This document shows positions 1,184-33,513 of a stretch of 43,335 nucleotides of DNA, piece after piece. Each line of letters starts with the position of its first letter. The first letter of the stretch is position 1. Location of the stretch: NCBI GenBank assembly GCA_964413845.1, contig CAYPTJ010000008.1:1-43335 (forward strand). Direction: 5' to 3'. The DNA is from an uncultured Candidatus Saccharibacteria bacterium. GTDB taxonomy: Bacteria; Patescibacteriota; WWE3; 9FT-COMBO-53-11. Both the position numbers and the translations under genes were made by a program. The notes beneath the pieces are model-generated. The model saw nothing but the letters and a program-made list of their open reading frames with translations, had not been told where the DNA came from and ran no database searches.

Positions 1184-1364
1184 TTTCGTTCCCTCCTTTC
1201 AGGGTTCAAATAACCACGAGTCCCTCGTGGTAGGGTTATCAGAGTACTACGATTCCGATACTATTTGCTATTATAGGATAAATCGGTTTGGAAGTCAAGA
1301 AGCGGTGGTGCCCCTGGCAGGATTCGAACCTACAATCTTCTCCTTATCCCGCCTTTGGCGGGAG

Positions 1365-1464
1365 TAAGGCGTTCGCTTCGCTCACACCCGTTTCCTTCGG
1401 AAATAAGGCGTTCGCTTCGCTCACACCCGTTTCCTTCGGAAATAAGGCGTTCGCTTCGCTCACA
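1365..1464. repeat. tandem repeat, 39-bp unit x ~2.6
   Basis: TAAGGCGTTCGCTTCGCTCACACCCGTTTCCTTCGGAAA at 1365 and 1404, plus a partial copy at 1443. Confidence 0.95.
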
Positions 1465-1495
1465 ACCTTGTCCGCCTCTGGCGGATAGTGATATC

Positions 1496-1602: not shown

Positions 1603-1622
1603 CCTGCCTGCCGGCAGGCAGG
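1603..1622. repeat. perfect 20-bp palindrome CCTGCCTGCCGGCAGGCAGG
   Basis: Self-reverse-complementary. Variants occur near 6702, 17763 and 27585. Confidence 0.9.
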
Positions 1623-6447: not shown

Positions 6448-6748
6448 TGGTCGGGGATCGCGGACTTGTCATGCCAAAGGCAGATCCACCTTTGGTGGAA
6501 ACCGCGGACCTTCCGACTAAATTTTGGTCGGGGTGGAGGGAATTGAACCCACTACTTCTCGGTCCCAAACCGAGCGTTCTACCGATGAACTACACCCCGA
6601 CGAACGTTAGTGAGGCGGGATGCTAGGTTCGCCGCTAGGCGAGCCGTCCACCCCGGAATTGTTATAGGACTGCTCTTAGCCTCCGCCAAAGGCGGATCGC
6701 CCCTGCCTTGCCGGCAGGCAGGTCTGGTGGAAACTGAGCTAATCCCCG
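6448..6748 (-). pseudogene. interrupted outer tRNA-Pro-like gene; anticodon not reconstructable
   Basis: 5' CGGGGATTAGCTCAGTT..GGCTAAGAGCA and 3' GGAAGGTCCGCGGTT|CAAGTCCGCGATCCCCGACCA have complementary acceptor strands. Inserts lie in the D-loop (6682-6731), the T-loop (6469-6499) and the anticodon arm. Confidence 0.75.
6525..6599 (-). tRNA. tRNA-Pro(TGG), intact, nested
   Basis: 75 nt, anticodon arm CTCGG-TT-TGG-GA-CCGAG, CCA end. Confidence 0.95.
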
Positions 6749-6807: not shown

Positions 6808-6909
6808 TGGTGGGCGGAGAGGGATTTCCTTCGACCACGCTCAGGATAAACTTCTCATCCCTCCCAGCCATGGTGAGCCTGCCGAATCCATGGTGGGCGG
6901 AGAGGGATT
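6807..6909. mobile_element. miniature element flanked by a 20-bp duplication that includes the tRNA-Leu 3' end
   Basis: ATGGTGGGCGGAGAGGGATT at 6807 and 6890. The interior has TCCTTCGA..GCTCAGGAT and ATGGTGAGCCTGCCGAATCCA. Confidence 0.65.
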
Positions 6910-7269: not shown

Positions 7270-8331
7270 CTAACGTGAAAGACGAACGCCAACAAGTCGA
7301 ACCTCTCTTTTGCGGTTGAGAAATGGAAGAAGGAGCTTGAGGGCAATCTTTTTAAACTGTGCAAGCTCTGTTATTCCCCCCTTCGCTGTTTCGGCTTTGG
7401 TGTGAGTTTCAAAGTTTTGGTAACGGACGGTGACGGTAACCGTCTCAAACCTTAATTTACTGGCAATAACCTCCTCCCACACCTCAGAAGAAAGATCAAG
7501 AAGAGCTTTGGCGATAAGGTTGGGATCGGCAGTGTCTTTTTCGAAAGTGATCTGTTTTCCAACTGATTTTATCGGTTGTATCTCTCCAACTGGGGTATCA
7601 TCCTTGCCGCGTGCGAGGTCAGAAAGGATACTACCAAACGACCCAATAATCTCTCTTAATTCTTCTTTTGTTAACCTCCGCAGATCAGAAACTGTTTTTA
7701 TCTTTTTAGTATAGAAGCGTTGAGCTGTCTTTGGTCCAATTCCAGGAATCTCTTGGATATCCAAAGGAGCTAAAAAGGCAAGAACCACACCAGGGACAAC
7801 TACAGTTAATCCATCCGGTTTGCTTTGCCCAGAGGCGATTTTAGCGACAAGCTTATTGGGTCCAATACCAACTGTTGCGGTGAGTTTCTGTTTTTCTCTA
7901 ATTAGTTTTTTTAGCTTAACTGCCAGATCAGCGGCTTTGCGGTAGGATCCCAGATGGGAGAGGTCTAGGAAGAACTCATCAGTACTTGCTTGCTCAACTA
8001 AAGGAACCTCCAAATGAAGGAGGCTAAGAATCTCCTGTGAAACACGATGATATTTTTCGATATCCGGTTGAAGAAAGATCGCCTGAGGAGCAAGGTGATA
8101 AGCTTGGGAGATTGGCATTGCACTTTTTATCCCAAATTTTCTTGCCTCATAATTGGCAGTTGAGACCACTCCTCGCCCGGTAGGGCGAAGCTCGCCCCCT
8201 TCGGGGGCGGCCCTCACCTTAGGATCGGCTCCAACCACAATCGGTTTTCCTGAAAACTGAGGATTGTCCCGCTCTTCAATTGCCGCATAAAAAGCATCCA
8301 TATCAAGGTGGGCAACGATTCGGTTTACCAT
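7270..8331 (-). CDS. dinB: DNA polymerase IV (Y family)
   Basis: HLDMDAFYAAIE, STANYEARKFG, STDEFFLD, NKLVAKIAS, KPDG. Confidence 0.95.
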   Translation of the reverse strand: MVNRIVAHLDMDAFYAAIEERDNPQFSGKPIVVGADPKVRAAPEGGELRPTGRGVVSTANYEARKFGIKSAMPISQAYHLAPQAIFLQPDIEKYHRVSQEILSLLHLEVPLVEQASTDEFFLDLSHLGSYRKAADLAVKLKKLIREKQKLTATVGIGPNKLVAKIASGQSKPDGLTVVVPGVVLAFLAPLDIQEIPGIGPKTAQRFYTKKIKTVSDLRRLTKEELREIIGSFGSILSDLARGKDDTPVGEIQPIKSVGKQITFEKDTADPNLIAKALLDLSSEVWEEVIASKLRFETVTVTVRYQNFETHTKAETAKGGITELAQFKKIALKLLLPFLNRKREVRLVGVRLSR

Positions 8332-9276: not shown

Positions 9277-9350
9277 TGGCTGGGAGGCTTGGATTCGAAC
9301 CAAGATTTCCAGATCCAAATTCTGGCGTGCTACCGTTACACCACCCCCCA
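9277..9350 (-). tRNA. tRNA-Gln(TTG)
   Basis: 74 nt, U1-A72, anticodon arm CCAGA-AT-TTG-GA-TCTGG, ends GCCA. Confidence 0.95.
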
Positions 9351-9356
9351 TTAAAG

Positions 9357-9605
9357 CTAAATTTTATCTTTGAATAATTTCTTTAGGAATCTCCTTCCCA
9401 CTCCAGATTTCAAATAATGTTCCCGACGCCCCGCTTCCTTAAGAGTTTGATATTCCTCCGAATGCAACAACTCCCAAGGTTTATATCTTTTCGTGAAGCG
9501 CATCTTTCCAGAATTATGCTCTTTCAGTCTTCGTTTAATATCATCTGTTACCCCAACGTAAGATTTTCTGGCCCGAACACTTTTTAATACATAAACGTGA
9601 TACAT
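9357..9605 (-). CDS. stand-alone GIY-YIG nuclease (YhbQ/UPF0213-like)
   Basis: VYVL...YVGVT...RRLKEHN...FTKRYKPW...RE..LKSG.GR signature. Confidence 0.92.
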   Translation of the reverse strand: MYHVYVLKSVRARKSYVGVTDDIKRRLKEHNSGKMRFTKRYKPWELLHSEEYQTLKEAGRREHYLKSGVGRRFLKKLFKDKI

Positions 9606-9606
9606 A

Positions 9607-9678
9607 CGCTGTCCTATCCGCCCCGCCTTTAGGCGGGCGAGATCTCGCCCGAAGGGCGGACCGTTAGACGACCCGGCA
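9607..9678 (-). pseudogene. orphan tRNA 5' half (Gln-like) with a 44-bp D-loop palindrome insert
   Basis: TGCCGGGTCGTCTAACGG|TAGGACAGCG after removing 9617-9660; D-stem GTCT/GGAC. No matching 3' half was seen. Confidence 0.6.
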
Positions 9679-9786
9679 ACGCCTTAAAACAATAATATCA
9701 GGAAAAAAAAGAAGCAACAAACGCCCTCCTTAGTATACAGGAAAGACGTACATCGGAACTTAGGTTTACACTAATTCAACGTTTCT

Positions 9787-15451: not shown

Positions 15452-17139
15452 TATTCTTTTGTTGCTCTTAAGATTTCTTCAATGGTCGTGGTTCCTTTTA
15501 CCACCTTTTTTAATCCATTCTCCAACATTGTTGTCATCCCTTTTTCAACCGCCATTCTCTGAACTGCCTCGGCATCTTTCCGTTCAATAATTGCCTGCCT
15601 AATATCATCATCTACAAGGAGAACCTCGTGAATTCCAATCCGATCGGCGTATCCAGTTTGCTGGCACAAAGGACATCCCTGGGCAGTCCAGATTGTAACC
15701 TTTTCCCCCTTACCAAGATATCTTTCAACCGCATCTTTAGGAAGGTGTTCTTTTATGTTTGCCGCTGGCACTTGCTCTTTCTTTCGGCAGTTTTGACAAA
15801 GCATCCTCACCAGCCGCTGGGCGATAATCACATTTACAGTTGAGGCGACCAAGAATGGTTCAACTCCCATATCTAGAAGTCGGATGATAGAGGTTGCAGC
15901 ATCATTCGCGTGCATGGTGGAAAGAAGGAGATGTCCAGTCATTGCGGCATTCACCGCAATATTTGCTGTCTCTGGGTCTCGGATTTCTCCAACAAGAATA
16001 ATGTCCGGGTCTTGTCGCACAATTGAGCGCAACCCCTGGGCGAAAGTAAGGTTTGTTTTGGGATTAACTTGAATTTGGTTAACCTCCTCCATATCATATT
16101 CCACTGGATCTTCAATCGTGGTGATGTTTACATCTCTTTTGTTTAAGACCTTTAAAACCGCATACATTGTGGTTGTTTTCCCAGATCCCGTTGGTCCAGT
16201 TGCCAGAATCATTCCGTAGGGCTTGTCGTAAGCCCACCTTATCTTCTTTAGATCTCCCTCCTCAAAACCCATGTCCTCAAATGAAAGTTGCCGCACTCGG
16301 GCGGAAAGAAGTCGCAAGACTACTTTTTCCCCATGGGTTGTAGGCATTACTGAGACGCGAACATCAAGTTTTGTTTGCTGCTCTTTTGGCAAACCCACTC
16401 CCGTGCGAAAGATTAACTTTCCATCCTGAGCAGCTTGGTGCTCATCGGTGCGAAGGTTCGCCATCACCTTGATGCGGGTGATAATCTCCGGATGGATCTC
16501 TTTAGGAAGAGTGGCGACATCATGGAGAATTCCATCAATCCGATATCTAATAAGCGATTCTTCTTCTTTGGGCTCGATATGAACATCGGAAGCGCGATTT
16601 TGGTCACCATAAGAAAGCATCAAATCCACAATCTTTATGATTGGAACCTCAGCTGGTTGGCCTTTTGTTAAAAAAGCGCTTTCTTCGATGAGCTTGGCAA
16701 ACTCTTTCTGGATATCTTTCTGATAGCGGCGAAAAACCCCTTTAATATCCTTGGGGGTTGCGTAGTGAGGAATTACCTCATCGCCAGTTTTCTTCCTGAT
16801 AAACTCAATCGTTTCCAAGTTTTCTGGATTGGCAAGAGCAACTTTTAACCCCTCCTTTCCGCGAGAAAAAGCAATCGCCATCCGACTGCGCGCGGTCATC
16901 TCTGGAATAATGTTGAGAATCTCCTTGGAGATGGTGATTTTTCTAAGCTGGACAAATGGTGTGCCAAAATGCTTGGCGACAAGAGCACCTAGTTTTTCAT
17001 CAGAGGTGAGATTTTTTTCCAAAATTAGTCGGTAGAGGGTTGTTTTTCTACTTTGGGCTTCTTTCGCCAACTCGGAAAGCTGTTTTTCACTAACGAGCTT
17101 GTTTTTAAGAAGAATTGGGGACAGGATTTTATCTTCCAT
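15451..17139 (-). CDS. pilB: type IV pilus assembly ATPase PilB/GspE
   Basis: ASDVHIEP, GPTGSGKTTT, RQDPDIILVGEIRD, two CxxC motifs, N-terminal extension. Confidence 0.95.
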   Translation of the reverse strand: MEDKILSPILLKNKLVSEKQLSELAKEAQSRKTTLYRLILEKNLTSDEKLGALVAKHFGTPFVQLRKITISKEILNIIPEMTARSRMAIAFSRGKEGLKVALANPENLETIEFIRKKTGDEVIPHYATPKDIKGVFRRYQKDIQKEFAKLIEESAFLTKGQPAEVPIIKIVDLMLSYGDQNRASDVHIEPKEEESLIRYRIDGILHDVATLPKEIHPEIITRIKVMANLRTDEHQAAQDGKLIFRTGVGLPKEQQTKLDVRVSVMPTTHGEKVVLRLLSARVRQLSFEDMGFEEGDLKKIRWAYDKPYGMILATGPTGSGKTTTMYAVLKVLNKRDVNITTIEDPVEYDMEEVNQIQVNPKTNLTFAQGLRSIVRQDPDIILVGEIRDPETANIAVNAAMTGHLLLSTMHANDAATSIIRLLDMGVEPFLVASTVNVIIAQRLVRMLCQNCRKKEQVPAANIKEHLPKDAVERYLGKGEKVTIWTAQGCPLCQQTGYADRIGIHEVLLVDDDIRQAIIERKDAEAVQRMAVEKGMTTMLENGLKKVVKGTTTIEEILRATKE

Positions 17140-17201
17140 TTAAGCATAAGTTTAACAAAATGATGTGCTTTAGGGTATGGTAAAATAATATTAAACATTT
17201 T

Positions 17202-17290
17202 GGGCGAGTGGTGGAATGGTAGACACGCAGTCTTCAGAAGGCTGTCCCTGCAAAACGGGGGTGGAGGTTCAAATCCTCTCTCGCCCACCA
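17202..17290 (+). tRNA. tRNA-Leu(CAG)
   Basis: Anticodon arm CAGTC-TT-CAG-AA-GGCTG, long variable arm, CCA. Confidence 0.93.
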
Positions 17291-17342
17291 CCTCGCTAAC
17301 GCTCGGTGTAAACTCCTAGCTTGCCCTGAGCGTAGCGAATGG

Positions 17343-17430
17343 GGGCGGATGGCGGAATTGGTATACGCGATAGGTTGAGGACCTATGCTCCGAAAGGGGC
17401 TTGAGGGTTCAAGTCCCTCTCCGCCCACCA
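17343..17430 (+). tRNA. tRNA-Leu(GAG)
   Basis: Anticodon arm ATAGG-TT-GAG-GA-CCTAT, long variable arm, CCA. Confidence 0.95.
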
Positions 17431-17466
17431 TGGGCGATTAGCTCAACGGTAAGAGCGCTTCGTTTA

Positions 17467-17596
17467 TCCCACACCGAAGCAAAGCTTAGTGCGGGAGTAG
17501 CGACGAGGGTCTGTAGCTCAGCGGCAAGAGCGTTCGGCTTACATCCGAAAGGTCCCTGGTTCGAATCCAGGCAGGCCCACCAGACCTCGTCGCGTC
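17467..17596. mobile_element. 130-bp anticodon insert carrying a complete tRNA-Val(TAC)
   Basis: Begins TCCCAC..GCGGGAGTA and ends TCGCGTC; inverted repeat GCGACGAGG/CCTCGTCGC surrounds the cargo. Confidence 0.7.
17507..17582 (+). tRNA. tRNA-Val(TAC), intact, nested
   Basis: 76 nt, anticodon arm TTCGG-CT-TAC-AT-CCGAA, CCA. Confidence 0.95.
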
Positions 17597-17646
17597 CATC
17601 GAAGAGGTTGGGGGTTCAAATCCTCCATCGCCCACCATTAAACTTC

Positions 17647-17722
17647 GCCGAGGTAGCCAACGTGGTCACGGCACACGCCTGAAGAGCGTGGGATGTGGGT
17701 TCGATTCCCACCCTCGGCACCA
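17647..17722 (+). tRNA. tRNA-Phe(GAA)
   Basis: Anticodon arm CACGC-CT-GAA-GA-GCGTG, 76 nt. Confidence 0.95.
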
Positions 17723-17800
17723 TCCTCCTTCGCTAAAGCTTCGGAAGGATGCCCCTCGAAGCCCTGCCTCGCCGGCAGGCAGGCTTGGCGAAGTGGGGCA
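17723..17800. repeat. palindromic doublet with a nested CCTG..CAGG palindrome
   Basis: Matches the reverse complement of 6751-6807 plus a 21-bp insert. Confidence 0.85.
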
Positions 17801-17801
17801 G

Positions 17802-17876
17802 GCGGCGGTAGTTCAGGGGTAGAACGTCTCGTTGCCAACGAGAAGGTCGCCGGTTCAAATCCGGTCCGCCGCTCCA
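17802..17876 (+). tRNA. tRNA-Gly(GCC)
   Basis: Anticodon arm TCTCG-TT-GCC-AA-CGAGA, ends TCCA. Confidence 0.95.
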
Positions 17877-30124: not shown

Positions 30125-32814
30125 TTAGCACCTTCGGCTAGAACTAGTGCCATAGCAATAAAAGCCAGGATTACTCCCCAATCGATGAATCCCAAAGAAG
30201 TAACTCCCATAATTGCCTGAAGAGGAGCGGCGTAAAGTGCAAGAAGCTGAAGCAAGAATGAACCAAGGAAGGCAATAACAAGGTAACGATTGGAGAAGAG
30301 CCTGTGCCAAAACGGAGCTTTACTTCGGATTGTAAAAACAATAAAAAGCTCAAAGAGAACCGCCGCAGTAAAAAGCATCGTTCGTGCCTTAACGACATCC
30401 GGAAGATAAGCAAGAAAGATCAACGCCTCACCAATTAAAGAGATAAAACCCAAGAAAAGGGCGTAGGTAAAGATTGGACGAACCATCTTTGGGCCAAGAT
30501 CACGTGGTGGCTCGCGTAAAACATCTGTAGTAGGTGGCTCATAAGCAAGAGCAAGGGCAGGGAATCCATCAGTAACAAAATTGATCCAAAGTATCTGGAG
30601 AGTAGTTAGCGGTTGCGGTAAACCCGCCAAGAGGGCGGCGGCAATAATTAGAAGTTCTTCGAAGTTTCCGGAGAGAAGAAAGATAAAGAATTTGCGGATG
30701 TTGTCGTAAAGAGTTCGGGCTTCAATTATCGCCGGAAGGACAGTCTCAATCTTGTCATCAAGAATCACCAAATCCGCGGCTTCCTTTGAAACATCCGCTC
30801 CCTTCTCCCCCATCACCACCCCCACATCCGCTTTTTTCAAGGCAGGAGCATCGTTAACACCATCACCGGAGACCGCCACCCGCATCCCCAATTGCTTAAA
30901 GGCTTTAACCAGACGGTATTTTTGGGTGGGAGTAATCCGGGCATAGATTGTAGTTTGGGGGATAATTTTTAACAACTCCTCATCACTTAAGTTATCCATT
31001 CCAGAACCGGAAAGAATATTTTTGGAAGCAACCTTTAACCCTAATTCACGTGCCACCGCAAGGGCAGTTCCGGGATGATCGCCGGTGATAATTACGGGTT
31101 TAATCCCGGCTTCAATCAAAGTGGCAAATGTTTCATCAACCCTCTCCTTCGGCTTATCCAAAAGCCCCGCAAATCCAACAAAAGTAAGCTCTTTTTCAAC
31201 CTCGCGGCTGGCGATCGAGCGGGTTTTGCGTTCTTTGGTTGCCAGAGCGATCACCCGATATCCCCCGGATGCTAATTTTCCTGCCTGATTTTCAAGCTGC
31301 ACTCTTCGAGCTAAAGAAAGCTCCACTTCCCTCCCTTCCGCAAAATATTGGCGGCAAAGAGGAAGGATCACCTCGGGTGCTCCCATACTATAAACCCGTA
31401 ATTGTAGGTCCTTAAAGAATATCTTGGTGCGCATCCGTCGCTCCGAAGTGAAAGCGAACTCCTTAAGTGCATCTTGCTTTCCAACTGACAATCTGGTTTT
31501 TTCGGCAAGAATAAGGAAAGCCCCCTCAGTGGGATCACCACGAACCGCCCAACGTTTCTCCCCGGTTCCATCAAGAGAAGAAATTGAAGCGGCACCTGCC
31601 AGAGCTCCTACTTCCACAAACTTTTTAAGCGGCTCATCGGGGGGAACATCAAGTGGTTTTCCATACTCAAAAACCATCCCTTCCGAGGAGAAACCTGCTC
31701 CAGTTACCTCCAGGATTCGGTCGGGAAGAGCAATCTTTGCTACCGTCATCTCGTTTCGGGTTAAAGTTCCCGTTTTATCAAAGGCAAAAAGATTAATTCC
31801 TGAAAGTGCCTCAACAGTGGGAAGGTGCCTCACCAAAACTTTTTCCCGTGAGAGCCGAAGGGCAGTTGTTGCCAAAGCAAGGGTAGTCACAGTGGGTAAA
31901 CTTTCAGGAACGGCAGAGACAAAAACAGCAATGGCAAGGTTAAGCATATGGATAAACTCATGCGCGCGTAAAAACCCCAAGACAAAAATCAGACCAGAGA
32001 GAAAAACCGCAAAGCCAGTGAGCCAAACCCCAAGATGGGTAATCCTCTCCAAAAGAAGGCTTTGTTCTTCCTGCTCTTGGACGAAGGTGGCAATTCGCCC
32101 AAACTCTGTTTCCGACCCAGCTTGGGTAACCACTCCCTTTCCAGTACCGGTAACCACATGCGTTCCACTGTAGGCCATATTTTCTCGATCAGCAAGAGAA
32201 GTTGCCTCCGGGAACCTCTCGGTAGTTTTATCTGAGGGAATTGATTCTCCCGTAAGGACTGCCTCATCAATCTTTAAATCCCTAACTTCAAAAAGCCGAA
32301 GATCCGCCGGTACCACCCCTCCTTCTCGAAGAACAACCACATCCCCGATAGTTAACCCTTCAACCGGCACATCTACCACTTCCCCAGCACGAATTACCTC
32401 TGCCTTTGCCGGATGGATCTGGCGCAAGGCCTCTAATGTCTTTTCCGCTTTTCTCTCCTGGAAAAAGGAAACCGCCACGTTAAGGGCAACAACGGCAAGA
32501 AGCACCAAGCCGTTTGTTGATGACTCAAAGATAAAAGAAAGAATGGAAGCAAGAAGAAGAAGAATCACAAAGAAGTTTTTAAATTGGGCAGCGAGCAGTC
32601 GTAAGGTTTTAAAGCGTTTCTCTTCAACCAGAATATTTGGACCATATCGACTTAAGCGTCGCTCTGCCTCTTTAGGGGTAAGACCTTTCTCTGAGGACCC
32701 AACAGTGGCGAAGACCCTCTCGACAGATTGCGCGTGTGCATTTTCCAGCTCCACTTGGACGCGATCAGAGATCGCTACTCGCGTTTTACGCGATGGTGAG
32801 CGAAGTTGAACCAT
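30100..32814 (-). CDS. cation-transporting P-type ATPase (P2A-like)
   Basis: TGES, VPESLP, DKTGTLT, GDPTE, GDGVNDAPAL, QILWINFVTDG.PALAL. Confidence 0.92.
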   Translation of the reverse strand: MVQLRSPSRKTRVAISDRVQVELENAHAQSVERVFATVGSSEKGLTPKEAERRLSRYGPNILVEEKRFKTLRLLAAQFKNFFVILLLLASILSFIFESSTNGLVLLAVVALNVAVSFFQERKAEKTLEALRQIHPAKAEVIRAGEVVDVPVEGLTIGDVVVLREGGVVPADLRLFEVRDLKIDEAVLTGESIPSDKTTERFPEATSLADRENMAYSGTHVVTGTGKGVVTQAGSETEFGRIATFVQEQEEQSLLLERITHLGVWLTGFAVFLSGLIFVLGFLRAHEFIHMLNLAIAVFVSAVPESLPTVTTLALATTALRLSREKVLVRHLPTVEALSGINLFAFDKTGTLTRNEMTVAKIALPDRILEVTGAGFSSEGMVFEYGKPLDVPPDEPLKKFVEVGALAGAASISSLDGTGEKRWAVRGDPTEGAFLILAEKTRLSVGKQDALKEFAFTSERRMRTKIFFKDLQLRVYSMGAPEVILPLCRQYFAEGREVELSLARRVQLENQAGKLASGGYRVIALATKERKTRSIASREVEKELTFVGFAGLLDKPKERVDETFATLIEAGIKPVIITGDHPGTALAVARELGLKVASKNILSGSGMDNLSDEELLKIIPQTTIYARITPTQKYRLVKAFKQLGMRVAVSGDGVNDAPALKKADVGVVMGEKGADVSKEAADLVILDDKIETVLPAIIEARTLYDNIRKFFIFLLSGNFEELLIIAAALLAGLPQPLTTLQILWINFVTDGFPALALAYEPPTTDVLREPPRDLGPKMVRPIFTYALFLGFISLIGEALIFLAYLPDVVKARTMLFTAAVLFELFIVFTIRSKAPFWHRLFSNRYLVIAFLGSFLLQLLALYAAPLQAIMGVTSLGFIDWGVILAFIAMALVLAEGAKWLWRKRG

Positions 32815-33018: not shown

Positions 33019-33093
33019 GGCCCTGTCGTCTAGCGGTTCGGACACTGCCCCTTCAAGGCAGAAATACGGGTTCAACTCCCGTCGGGGCCACCA
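33019..33093 (+). tRNA. tRNA-Glu(TTC), with C at position 33
   Basis: Anticodon arm CTGCC-CC-TTC-AA-GGCAG, 75 nt, CCA. Confidence 0.88.
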
Positions 33094-33513
33094 TCCTTCG
33101 AGACGTTCGGCTGAGCTCAGTCGAAGCCCAGGCTCAGGATTGAAAATGTACTTCGTCTATATTCTCCTTTGTGATAAAGACTTTTTCTACGTTGGTTTAA
33201 GTGATAATCTTGAGGAGCGTTTACAAGATCATACCTCGGGCTATAGCCCATACACCCGTAGATTTAGTGAGATCGAACTTGTGCATAGTGAGCGATATCC
33301 TAAACGCTCCCAGGCAGAGAGGAGAGAGAAGCAGATCAAGGGTTGGTCGAAAGCAAAGAAAAAGGCTTTGATTGGTGGGGATAGGGAGAAGCTTAGAGAA
33401 CTAAGTAAATCTAAATCCTGAGCTTGGTGAAGGATCTTGCGGCGGGTACTATATGGTGAGCCTGCGAAGCAGCGAGCTTGTCGAGCTGTCGAACCATCCC
33501 GTCGGGGCCACCA
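33094..33513 (+). mobile_element. GIY-YIG cassette at the tRNA-Glu 3' end
   Basis: 17-bp direct repeat TCCCGTCGGGGCCACCA at 33077 and 33497; palindromic TTCGA..GCTCA / TGAGC..TCGAA ends. Confidence 0.75.
33146..33421 (+). CDS. stand-alone GIY-YIG nuclease (YhbQ/UPF0213-like)
   Basis: YFVYIL.C...YVG.S..L..RL..H...RE.QIKGWS..KK.ALI. Confidence 0.93.
   Translation: MYFVYILLCDKDFFYVGLSDNLEERLQDHTSGYSPYTRRFSEIELVHSERYPKRSQAERREKQIKGWSKAKKKALIGGDREKLRELSKSKS

Follow-up and report, generated by a model that had tools for sequence, protein, structure and literature searches.

Here, we describe a tRNA gene that lies inside another gene for the same tRNA. Within the window, the 43,335-nt stretch of DNA that was analyzed as a whole, positions 17432 to 17637 hold a complete tRNA-Val(UAC) gene nested in a second tRNA-Val(UAC) gene, with the break falling between nucleotides 35 and 36 of the outer gene. 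We consider it probable, on balance, that a small cassette without open reading frames (ORFs) and carrying a tRNA gene invaded the resident gene for the same tRNA and took its place, the outer halves being a fresh relic. The source is a metagenome-assembled genome (G000) of 54 contigs and 0.61 Mb that is 92% complete.

All parts of the nest are on the forward strand. The outer 5' half (17432–17466, nucleotides 1–35) comprises the acceptor strand, the D arm, the 5' strand of the anticodon stem, and the loop up to A35; the outer 3' half (17597–17637, nucleotides 36–76) runs from C36 onward through the T arm and the acceptor strand to CCA. The insert between them (17467–17596) is 130 nt long, of which 76 nt are tRNA and 54 nt lie outside the tRNA, and is devoid of ORFs. 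It opens with a hairpin (17467–17496) that is seen in folding and has an outer stem of ~8 bp and an inner stem of 4 bp, followed by a GTA linker and a 5' arm, GCGACGA (together 17497–17506, the arm being 17500–17506), which abuts the inner tRNA and is a 7-bp complement of 17587–17593. The inner tRNA-Val(UAC) (17507–17582; anticodon tac) is complete with an encoded CCA, is reported by ARAGORN, scores 71.3 bits against RF00005, and is presumed to be the working copy. The insert closes with a 14-nt trailer (17583–17596) consisting of GACC, the 3' arm TCGTCGC (17587–17593), which pairs with the 5' arm, and GTC. Reading the sequence confirmed every piece and coordinate of a first-pass annotation that had proposed just such an arrangement of hairpin, arm, 76-nt cargo, and arm in a 130-bp insert.

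The assignment of a complete tRNA-Val(UAC) between nucleotides 35 and 36 of another is borne out by ARAGORN, by RF00005, and by a deletion test, in which removal of 17467–17596 with a script left a 76-nt tRNA-Val(tac) in which, according to ARAGORN, each of the four stems is paired and the anticodon loop has 7 nt; the outer halves thus carry no further lesion, as originally proposed. The outer-gene joins were set by eye and then confirmed with ARAGORN, since a deletion-scan finder that placed the outer ends did not constrain the join tightly enough, and the intron modes of ARAGORN (-i, -io) misplaced the intron or fused neighboring tRNAs. Standard tRNA finders report the inner gene alone at the nest, and the outer genes were invisible to RF00005 in a search of the organism's own genome. 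The left junction (GTTTA/TCCC) and the right junction (GCGTC/CATC) have nothing in common on reading of the Val nest; the ends are exact and a target duplication is absent. The dissimilarity of the inner and outer acceptor stems asserted at the outset holds up on comparison. The inner acceptor stem is self-consistent and differs from the outer one on both strands, which argues that the inner gene came in whole.

The trailer is nearly complementary to the 5' arm plus the inner acceptor strand, in line with what the first-pass annotation had pointed out, and the MFE fold (ViennaRNA) uses this pairing. The accompanying idea of two alternative folds survives in part: both are predicted, the trailer-pairing fold at −56.4 kcal/mol versus −50.9 for the cloverleaf plus arms, but the competing pairing is not conserved. 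It was not seen in the insert homologue of a related genome (G002), in the Arg and Leu nests described below, or in the nests of other genomes that were read, and therefore looks incidental in these predictions.

The nest is part of a cluster, Leu(cag)-Leu(gag)-[Val in Val]-Phe(gaa)-Gly(gcc), that ARAGORN places at 17202–17876 on the forward strand, as anticipated. Cotranscription of the cluster, also proposed earlier, is compatible with, though not proven by, one promoter-like site upstream (17152–17181) and no terminator-like site inside. Five sister genomes have the identical five tRNA genes in the order Phe-Gly-Leu-Leu-Val. The outer gene matches the uninterrupted tRNA-Val(TAC) of sister genomes at 71/76 (G007) and 70/76 (G008) positions, versus only 58/76 for the inner gene, and is thus no chance look-alike; these sister genes represent the empty site. 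Its 5' half is 97% identical to the G007 gene over 34 nt and its 3' half 91% identical over 43 nt, the latter also agreeing at 36/41 positions with the outer 3' half of the nest in G004. The inner gene in turn is identical at 71/76 positions to the inner gene of G002, which carries the closest homologue of the Val insert, with ~15% divergence between the two inserts; the homologous hairpin there (L002, 809–838) keeps both stems through two two-sided pair changes (C-G to T-A and G-C to A-T). The inner 3' half is 39/41 identical to Val genes in genus g25 of family f14, and an inner type with acceptor GGTCGGA is found within an outer type with GGGCGAT in both G004 (family f1) and G113 (family f14). 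As these comparisons show, different families have inner-gene types in common.

The same genome harbors two further nests, Arg(UCU)-in-Arg(UCU) and Leu(UAG)-in-Leu(UAG), and in each of the three the outer gene is split at 35/36 by a cassette with the anticodon of the outer gene. The Arg nest is in the window on the reverse strand (1306–1643): the outer tRNA-Arg(UCU) is made up of 1643–1589 plus 1346–1306, and the 242-nt insert (1588–1347) contains the inner tRNA-Arg(UCU) at 1571–1496. A 20-nt palindrome is lodged in the outer D loop (1622–1603), and ARAGORN recognizes the outer tRNA-Arg(tct) only with both inserts deleted. This palindrome occurs at ~12 genome sites versus 0–1 for a control, and because the D-loop insert is a copy of a dispersed palindromic repeat, the outer Arg gene fits neutral DNA. 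The Leu nest (contig C7, 144–346) is situated <350 nt from a contig end. Its inner Leu(UAG) has a defective T stem with 3/5 pairs and no G53-C61 (RF00005, 38 bits), and T stems are perfect in 8/8 other Leu(UAG) genes seen in the class; a second Leu nest was not found in the family (10 genomes) or in the class (134 genomes), which have ordinary Leu genes instead. All three nests rejoin into a full 7-nt anticodon loop, with perfect cloverleaves for outer Val and Leu, and their junctions share no common sequence or structure.

Nests of this kind recur across the class, whose members are very small groundwater bacteria. The pattern of a tRNA followed at 3 to 34 nt by an orphan 3' half starting with CAT, which counts Val-type halves, is found in 17/134 genomes (21 matches), and a wider pattern in 21/134 (28 matches); the control, reversed in the former case, gave 0 for both. 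Both outer halves are present in eight nests (G000, G003, G004, G053, G056, G091, G100, and G113), only one of which, the G000 Val nest, is free of lesions. A35 is missing from the outer gene in G003, G004, G056, and G113, the outer D loop contains a hairpin insert in G003, G004, and G053, and the outer T stem is only 4/5 paired in G053, G091, and G100. G091 and G100 are multishell "Russian dolls" in which the 5' and 3' shells appear in mirror order, and G006 has three 3' halves in succession. At least nine more orphan 3' halves either have a missing or truncated 5' partner or duplicate the 3' half of an adjoining intact gene; in G128, a spacer plus 3' half occurs as two identical units, and some arrays of 3' halves alone (genus g25, G128) could have arisen by tandem duplication. 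The Val nest is one member of a recurrent class-wide pattern in which such nests in other genomes have decayed outer shells, and this pattern favors gene replacement over an intron. Searches farther afield returned two matches in viral contigs, both ordinary abutting tRNA genes, and, with a loose pattern, 120 stretches in metagenome contigs, nearly all within protein genes. The left-end hairpin pattern gave 120 stretches in species genomes, and the 80 examined were chance matches with no related element.

Replacement at the DNA level would proceed as follows. A resident tRNA-Val(UAC) of the type that is intact in sister genomes would have been opened between A35 and C36 by a 130-bp ORF-less cassette in which a short leader/trailer helix encloses a different tRNA-Val(UAC) gene. 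The cellular tRNA would then come from the inner gene, probably excised from the transcript of the cluster by the usual enzymes of tRNA 5' and 3' processing, and the outer copy would be dead, its halves a very recent, undamaged remnant. The process may be a recurring one, in which a cassette enters a gene for its own tRNA at the anticodon loop, destroys that gene, becomes indispensable, and is later invaded in turn, yielding nested shells; the matching anticodons would reflect cell survival, homing, or both. Several observations sit uneasily with replacement. The outer genes for Val and Leu are undamaged, each of the three nests of this genome rejoins to a 7-nt loop, the T-stem defect of the inner Leu(UAG) is odd for a working copy, and an outer gene free of selection would be expected to show decay had the insertion happened as long ago as the ~15% divergence from G002. 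Recent horizontal arrival might explain an intact outer Val gene despite that divergence. In family f1, the cassettes terminate in a hairpin plus a T-run, and one 5' end is located where the promoter-like box of a sister would start transcription. Retro-insertion of a whole primary transcript was considered and set aside, as the G000 Val cassette does not fit it, and neither tyrosine nor serine recombinase junction models gave a consistent fit to the junctions of ~10 nests checked by hand.

No nuclease, transposase, or integrase gene is present in or beside the Val insert, and no nuclease gene in or beside the mobile segment at the Arg and Leu nests either. The best lead to an inserting enzyme would be the small GIY-YIG nucleases encoded next to tRNA genes or fragments (among them window 33140–33421 and 9357–9605 and a paralogue adjoining tRNA-Ile), with four Y1 (RAYT-like) transposases as a second candidate. 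The small GIY-YIG ORFs of this genome all fall within ~105 nt of a tRNA gene (6/6), and tRNA fragments or 16-nt repeats of a tRNA 3' end flank five of them. In relatives, a tRNA is found within 150 nt of 12/28 such ORFs (30 loci returned, minus the genome's own and one UvrC-sized ORF of 454 residues). Moreover, the insert homologue in G002 is preceded by a remnant that matches the last 38 residues of a GIY-YIG protein (60% identity, E 2e-13). This remnant matches two GIY-YIG paralogues of G000; it has no Pfam family and no BLASTP similarity to the GIY-YIG protein encoded in the window at 33140–33421. The GIY-YIG proteins are bare catalytic domains of 82 to 93 residues that lack a DNA-binding domain. 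Phage T4 SegB offers a parallel, since the available text describes it as a GIY-YIG homing nuclease encoded among tRNA genes, within a tRNA cluster, that drives preferential inheritance of its own tRNA region (PMC2330249). SegB as described there, however, has a DNA-binding part and acts between coinfecting phages, whereas the G000 proteins are bare domains in a cellular genome, and the Val nest contains no GIY-YIG gene.

An alternative is that the insert represents a genuine, tRNA-encoding intron, so that the transcript would yield the inner tRNA and, after exact excision at 35/36 by an endonuclease and resealing, for example by RtcB, a working outer tRNA-Val as well, giving two tRNAs per anticodon from one transcription unit. 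We regard this as unlikely, but the intact outer Val and Leu genes, which have perfect cloverleaves, and a defective-looking inner Leu(UAG) within a native-looking, intact outer gene keep it alive. It is also consistent with the MFE fold, which retains the acceptor, D, anticodon, and T stems of the outer gene around the insert, with an insert that has diverged from that of G002 between outer halves that are still intact, and with retention of RtcB in a 0.61-Mb genome (PF01139, 387 bits, split over two contig ends). RtcB is common, though, in bacteria without tRNA introns, and the ends left by RNase P and 3' processing are not ones that RtcB ligates. The splicing endonuclease family, PF01974, had no match in a six-frame search of the 92% complete genome at E up to 1. 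Outer shells elsewhere that lack A35 or the 5' half or carry D-loop inserts could not be spliced into tRNAs, multishell nests would require several nested splicing events, and the three G000 nests share no junction sequence or structure.

Self-splicing, raised as a possibility by the first-pass annotation, is not supported. The 5' exon of a group I intron ends in U, which forms a U-G pair in P1, the intron itself ends in G, and a conserved P3–P8 core is present. Here, the exon ends in A35 and the insert in C, 76 of the 130 nt are tRNA, and no Rfam intron or ribozyme was found at the gathering score in the window or at E up to 5 in 17380–17700. A bulge-helix-bulge was not seen in the MFE fold of the Val nest or, by eye, at the junctions of the three nests. 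The nest does resemble bacterial tRNAs with group I introns in having an intervening sequence in the anticodon loop (Leu-UAA, fMet, Arg, and Ile in the available text of PMC3984707); unlike these, its insert has no group I core or Rfam match and the wrong splice-site nucleotides, and is 130 nt of mostly tRNA. With the noncanonical introns and the split and permuted tRNAs of archaea, as far as the accessible sources describe them, it shares an unusual break position, a leader/trailer helix by a tRNA body, and the possibility of more than one interruption per gene, the outer Arg gene having two. Those introns are described as needing a bulge-helix-bulge and a splicing endonuclease, whereas the nest is in a bacterium without a detectable endonuclease, and its interrupting sequence is a tRNA of the same anticodon.

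Integrative elements provide another explanation of about the same low likelihood, in which a tyrosine integrase would have crossed over in the anticodon loop, the tRNA segment of the element would have been brought in, the body of the element deleted, and the displaced piece left behind, with 3'-half arrays perhaps reflecting slippage duplications. Anticodon loops are reportedly classic integrase crossover sites. Several features agree with this scheme: 3' halves alone follow an intact gene in G006, G030, G055, G128, and G116, those of G128 being the identical repeated units noted above; G000 encodes two Phage_integrase proteins, one adjoining tRNA-Ile; and four G000 tRNA genes (Trp, Ser, Leu(taa), and Glu) are followed downstream by exact 16- to 20-nt repeats of the tRNA 3' end. 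Both Phage_integrase genes are on other contigs than the nest, however, there is no recombinase gene in or beside the Val insert, whose 54 non-tRNA nucleotides are too few to hold one, and a recombinase-less insert of 130 bp found three times per genome at the same nucleotide is unlike a decayed island. An integrase would also keep the host 5' half in use, which predicts no orphan 5' half, and eight nests have one in mirror position; the Val junctions have no common core repeat of the kind expected of an att site, and the self-consistent inner acceptor stem indicates that the inner gene arrived whole. Integrative elements that target tRNA genes, such as tyrosine-integrase islands and prophages, likewise land in a tRNA gene, often in the anticodon loop, supply tRNA sequence that keeps the gene working, and leave a displaced fragment behind. 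An archaeal precedent for tRNA fragments left by a recombinase element is found in Caldiarchaeum, as given in the text available for PMC3293823. The nest differs from such integrative elements in that its insert is only 130 bp, has no recombinase, and brings a whole tRNA gene rather than a 3' segment, and in that it keeps both halves of the old gene without an att repeat, occurs at one exact nucleotide, and repeats to nested shells.

It is rather improbable that the cassettes are nonautonomous hairpin elements, REPIN or IS200/IS605 derivatives moved as single-stranded DNA by Y1 transposases, which would enter the exposed loop of the anticodon hairpin with the tRNA riding in the loop of the element's palindrome. 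This proposal amounts to gene replacement with a different enzyme. The 0.61-Mb genome contains four Y1_Tnp genes above the Pfam cut-off for PF01797, whose best NCBIfam match is the REP-associated tyrosine transposase, albeit at 39 to 46 bits against a cut-off of 80 bits, and exact insertion with no target duplication fits such an enzyme. The ends of the Val insert are matched by those of the Arg insert on the opposite strand: after TTA, both begin with TCCC(A/G)C, a hairpin, and GGGAGTA, and both end in (G/A)TCGCGTC. The right-end motif, TAGCGA..TCGCGTC, is a palindrome with ~10 further copies in the genome, in whose loop the Val and Arg tRNAs sit (as GTAGCGA..TCGCGTC in the Val nest), and the outer Arg D loop has received a copy of a second dispersed palindrome. 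The palindromic motif was also considered as a sigma-70 promoter; its spacing varies from 14 to 18, and its orientation to neighboring genes is inconsistent. Yet the right-end motif shows no proximity to, or link with, the Y1 genes, the left-end hairpin has only two copies in the genome, cassette ends of other genomes lack such motifs, and a three-base target alone cannot account for the constant match between the anticodons of cassette and target.

Finally, an assembly artifact in which two tRNA-Val alleles of coexisting strains were stitched together might be feared in a metagenome-assembled genome of 54 contigs, given that tRNA genes are repeats that assemblers handle poorly, but it is exceedingly unlikely, as the nest and both flanks are covered without a single difference by independent Logan contigs from 4/4 other DNA runs and the same architecture with other sequences occurs in 17/134 genomes, some of them single-contig (e.g., G053). 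The misassembly that the first-pass annotation had named as a refuting condition is thereby ruled out. These contigs, from runs that perhaps belong to one sampling campaign, cross the whole nest (17100–17747 in X9 and X11, 17402–17762 in X10, and 17343–17749 in X13). Among the joints listed for the four runs, none connects 17466 to 17597 as an empty allele would, contigs being blind to rare variants. Two contigs link 17458 to 17613 with unknown letters between and most likely stem from tRNA genes of other organisms.

An rRNA can work in pieces, which a tRNA cut in its anticodon cannot do. Mobile DNA that enters tRNA genes and repairs the break with tRNA sequence that it carries is already known. 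In Candidate Phyla Radiation (CPR) bacteria, rRNA genes contain many short inserts, often <200 bp and without intron features; most occupy the top or the base of a stem-loop, and GIY-YIG proteins are encoded by some, according to the available text of PMC11270868. Both cases involve structural-RNA genes of small-genome bacteria interrupted by short sequences; the nest insert, unlike those in rRNA, brings a spare gene, and the available text of that paper has 0 occurrences of tRNA. A description of tRNA-in-tRNA nests was not found in the main texts of the full-text collection searched, which includes few subscription journals. The novelty lies in a minimal, ORF-less form of ~100 to 240 bp that places a whole tRNA gene at the central anticodon nucleotide of a gene for the same tRNA, and the recurrence of such cassettes across families, repeatable into nested shells. 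The outer genes, fragments, and nests go unannotated because standard tRNA finders see the inner gene only, and tRNA counts of these organisms can be distorted as a result. Should splicing prove true, the nests would raise the question of whether tRNAs are spliced enzymatically in Bacteria, where, to our knowledge, no protein-dependent tRNA splicing of this kind has been described. If replacement is true, they would represent a new route of tRNA gene turnover and horizontal movement in genomes with single copies of each tRNA gene, and may embody a selfish "kill and replace" strategy that renders the newcomer essential.

The tRNA-Val(UAC) locus lies in a genome of 609,686 bases in 54 contigs, rated 92% complete and recovered from aquifer or groundwater metagenomes, whose relatives range from 0.4 to 1.1 Mb; the window is its contig C8. 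Such an origin and such genome sizes suggest membership in the Patescibacteria (CPR). ARAGORN and Rfam identify twelve tRNA genes in the window, including a cluster that reads, in order, Leu(cag), Leu(gag), Val(tac) at 17507–17582, Phe(gaa), and Gly(gcc). The 76-nt Val gene of this cluster is nested within a second tRNA-Val(UAC) gene, of which 35 nt (17432–17466) precede and 41 nt (17597–17637) follow an insert at 17467–17596. The insert opens directly after 17466 with a 30-nt hairpin, runs through a GTA linker and the arm GCGACGA into the inner gene, and closes with the trailer GACC-TCGTCGC-GTC, a layout that agrees exactly, piece by piece, with that proposed in the first-pass annotation. Deletion of 17467–17596 by script yields a 76-nt tRNA-Val(tac) with all stems paired and a normal 7-nt loop; the break falls between A35 and C36 (35/36), and no repeat is common to the two junctions. 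Misassembly, which the same annotation had named as a refuting condition, finds no support in Logan contigs from four other runs (possibly of one campaign), which span the nest and its flanks with zero differences, and the nested-gene observation is confirmed.

A search of 61 related genomes retrieved an uninterrupted gene of the outer type in G007 and G008, two members of the same family but another genus. The rejoined outer gene is identical to these at 71 and 70 of 76 positions, respectively, and to the inner gene at only 58 of 76; the outer gene is therefore the native tRNA-Val(UAC) of the family, into which the 130 nt were inserted. The inner gene is of another type: it matches the Val(tac) gene of a further relative, G002, at 71 of 76 positions, 39 of the 41 positions of its 3′ half match Val genes of a different family of the class (f14, genus g25), and its type is found in the second shell of the G006 nest, in the G002 gene, and in f14. 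An inner type with acceptor GGTCGGA is found inside an outer type with GGGCGAT in nests of two families, G004 (f1) and G113 (f14). In the nest of G056, the inner gene equals the outer one apart from two acceptor-stem pairs with compensatory changes, a pattern characteristic of a gene that has landed inside its orthologue from a close relative.

Two more nests emerged in the host genome from a search for T arms not belonging to called tRNAs and a subsequent deletion scan. On the window’s minus strand, an outer tRNA-Arg(UCU) (1643–1589 and 1346–1306) is split by 242 nt harboring an inner tRNA-Arg(UCU) (1571–1496), and on contig C7 an outer tRNA-Leu(UAG) (144–179 and 298–346) encloses an inner tRNA-Leu(UAG) (188–274). 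Both outer genes are called by ARAGORN once the inserts are removed, the Arg gene also requiring removal of a 20-nt D-loop palindrome. The anticodon is the same inside and out and the split is at 35/36 in all three nests. Toward its 3′ end (window 1347–1495, minus strand), the Arg insert contains ≈2.6 tandem copies of a ≈39-nt unit.

Across the class, we used a pattern consisting of a T loop through to CCA, 3 to 34 nt, and then CAT, a variable loop, and a T arm, which describes an orphan Val-type 3′ half lying downstream of a tRNA. This pattern is found in 17 of 134 genomes (21 places), with no matches to a reversed control; dropping the CAT requirement gives 21 genomes and 28 places, mostly Val with a few fragments of other tRNAs, again with none for the control. 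In an even sample of the phylum, 6 of 401 genomes match, all of them from this class (25 members sampled), with no match in the other 376, a comparison in which the need for an encoded CCA may bias the pattern against other classes. In viral contigs (IMG/VR), the pattern gave two matches, each of them ordinary tRNA genes that abut. One of the 28 places in the class is in G012 (locus L289, contig C59, ≈1290–1600), where a tRNA-Ala(GGC) gene has a second tRNA-Ala(GGC) inside its D loop, so the insertion site is not always 35/36.

Several nests elsewhere in the class are multishell “Russian dolls.” In G091 and G100, a truncated 5′ half of type C and a 5′ half of type B precede an intact gene of type A, followed by the 3′ halves of B and C; in G090, of the same genus, the same three types occur with A outermost and C inside, and in G006 an intact gene is followed by three successive 3′ halves. 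Each nest read has a leader/trailer inverted repeat of 5 to 16 bp around the inner gene; since similar pairing surrounds several ordinary tRNA genes of the host genome, it probably belongs to the usual makeup of tRNA units in these genomes rather than marking a transposon end. Eight nests keep both outer halves (G000, the host, and G003, G004, G053, G056, G091, G100, and G113). A35 is absent in G003, G004, G056, and G113, a hairpin is inserted in the D loop in G003, G004, and G053, and the T stem is mismatched in G053, G091, and G100, which leaves the host Val nest as the only one free of lesions; at many other places in the class, the 5′ half is gone entirely. The D-loop insert of the outer tRNA-Arg is itself one copy of a GC-rich palindrome, CCTGCCTGCCGGCAGG, dispersed at ≈12 places in the host genome (e.g., window 1603–1622 and 6707–6722) versus 0 to 1 for a control. 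Such lesions, and a dispersed repeat within a D loop, are as expected of dead DNA. With outer shells mostly damaged elsewhere and this one intact, the host Val nest stands at the young, clean extreme of a decay series.

This decay bears directly on whether the outer tRNA is still produced, by splicing out of the insert, which we consider unlikely. The outer Val and Leu genes are perfect, all three host nests give complete loops upon rejoining, and RtcB is present in this very small genome. Furthermore, as assembled, the inner Leu(UAG) scores lowest of all tRNAs in the genome (38 bits), with a T stem paired at 3 of 5 positions and lacking G53–C61, versus eight of eight normal Leu(UAG) genes seen elsewhere in the class, while its outer gene is similar to the Leu(UAG) gene found in G005, a sister genome; this locus is <350 nt from a contig end. 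Against splicing, no splicing endonuclease was found in the 92% complete genome, no intron or ribozyme family is matched, the nests have no junction structure in common, and splicing of the broken shells in other genomes cannot be reconciled with the facts. The first-pass annotation had also suggested that the trailer could compete with the inner acceptor stem. Pairing of the trailer with the 5′ arm and inner acceptor strand is indeed predicted, and favored by 5.5 kcal/mol in ViennaRNA (−56.4 versus −50.9), and none of 200 shuffles folds as stably as the whole 209-nt region (z = −4.2); neither the G002 homologue nor the other nests read show this pairing, and we thus regard it as incidental.

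Insertion of a substitute gene raises the matter of the inserting enzyme, for which there are two leads. The first is the GIY-YIG nucleases. The host genome encodes six small GIY-YIG ORFs, bare catalytic domains of 82 to 93 aa, each with a tRNA gene within ≈105 nt; in relatives, 12 of 28 have one within 150 nt. Two of these ORFs come after tRNA-Glu and tRNA-Trp, each bounded by a 16-nt exact repeat of the respective tRNA’s 3′ end. At the Glu locus (window 33019–33510, plus strand), tRNA-Glu(ttc) (33019–33093) precedes a 93-aa ORF (33140–33421), with the repeat ≈75 nt past its stop; a close paralogue follows tRNA-Trp on contig C15 in the same layout (ORF hit 7488–7703, repeat 7360–7377). This unit looks like a small cassette inserted into a tRNA gene 3′ end. 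Three further ORFs come before tRNA-Gln, tRNA-Ile, and tRNA-Asp, each preceded by an orphan 5′ fragment or deformed tRNA copy. At the Gln locus (window 9277–9720, minus strand), an 82-aa ORF (9357–9605) lies 6 nt upstream of tRNA-Gln(ttg), and directly upstream of its start codon is an orphan 5′ half resembling tRNA-Gln with a hairpin insert in the D loop. At the Asp locus (C53:22500–23080, minus strand), a deformed tRNA-Asp-like copy and the ORF precede tRNA-Asp, downstream of which are two tandem 3′ fragments with a longer hairpin in place of the T arm. In G002, the hairpin, arm, and tRNA of the Val insert have an 85% identical homologue, and preceding it is a remnant that matches the last 38 aa of the host GIY-YIG paralogue beside tRNA-Ile (60% identity, E = 2e-13) and that Pfam does not recognize.

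The second lead is four Y1 (IS200-like) transposase paralogues of 230 to 317 aa in this 0.61-Mb genome (C42:5621–6574, C35:34–726, C35:8991–9719, and C18:5287–6018), whose best NCBIfam match, below the curated cut-off, is the REP-associated tyrosine transposase. One of them adjoins two tRNA-Ala genes. CCTGCCTGCCGGCAGG is one of two dispersed palindrome families in the genome; the other, (G/C)TAGCGATC-N4-8-GATCGCGTCCA, occurs intergenically at window 32757–32777 (minus strand) and ≈10 other places (e.g., C2:236, C27:6586, C35:1701, C46:6700, C53:18623, C53:22515, and C54:2930), often just upstream of tRNA genes, and also in sister genomes G005 and G008. Its loop holds the inner tRNA in the Val and Arg nests, and the Val and Arg inserts have matching ends once the latter is read on the opposite strand. 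This motif may represent a REP-like element, a hairpin involved in processing, or a site for a regulator; no physical link of the motifs to the Y1 genes was found in the host genome. Other traces are a single reverse transcriptase resembling group II intron enzymes, below cut-off, and an orphan tRNA-Asn-like 3′ half (C3:54353–54392) that starts at about nucleotide 36, with no Asn gene nearby. Exact 19- to 20-nt repeats of the tRNA-Leu(taa) and tRNA-Ser(gct) 3′ ends occur shortly downstream of those genes (window 6808–6826 and C17:2022–2041).

We found no report of one tRNA gene lying inside another of the same kind in the full-text literature searched (main texts, mostly outside subscription journals). 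The nearest are an archaeal case of integrase elements with tRNA fragments (PMC3293823), the split and permuted tRNAs of archaea, a study of insertion sequences in CPR rRNA genes in which tRNA is never mentioned (PMC11270868), and phage T4 SegB, a GIY-YIG homing nuclease inside a tRNA cluster (PMC2330249). Nested tRNA genes form a recurrent and apparently undescribed class. A whole tRNA unit enters at, or within one nucleotide of, the anticodon-loop center of a same-anticodon gene, leaving no target duplication and sometimes losing A35. The cluster has one promoter-like site (17152–17181) and no terminator-like site inside it; RNase P and 3′ processing would free the inner gene from the cluster transcript, making it the probable supplier of the cell’s tRNA-Val(UAC), and the outer halves may act as homology arms during any spread of a nested allele. 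The nests are best explained as serial tRNA gene replacement by small mobile tRNA cassettes, with the inserting enzyme at candidate level only. The matching anticodons would then follow from single-copy tRNA genes, since a cell would survive such a hit only if the insert supplies the substitute.
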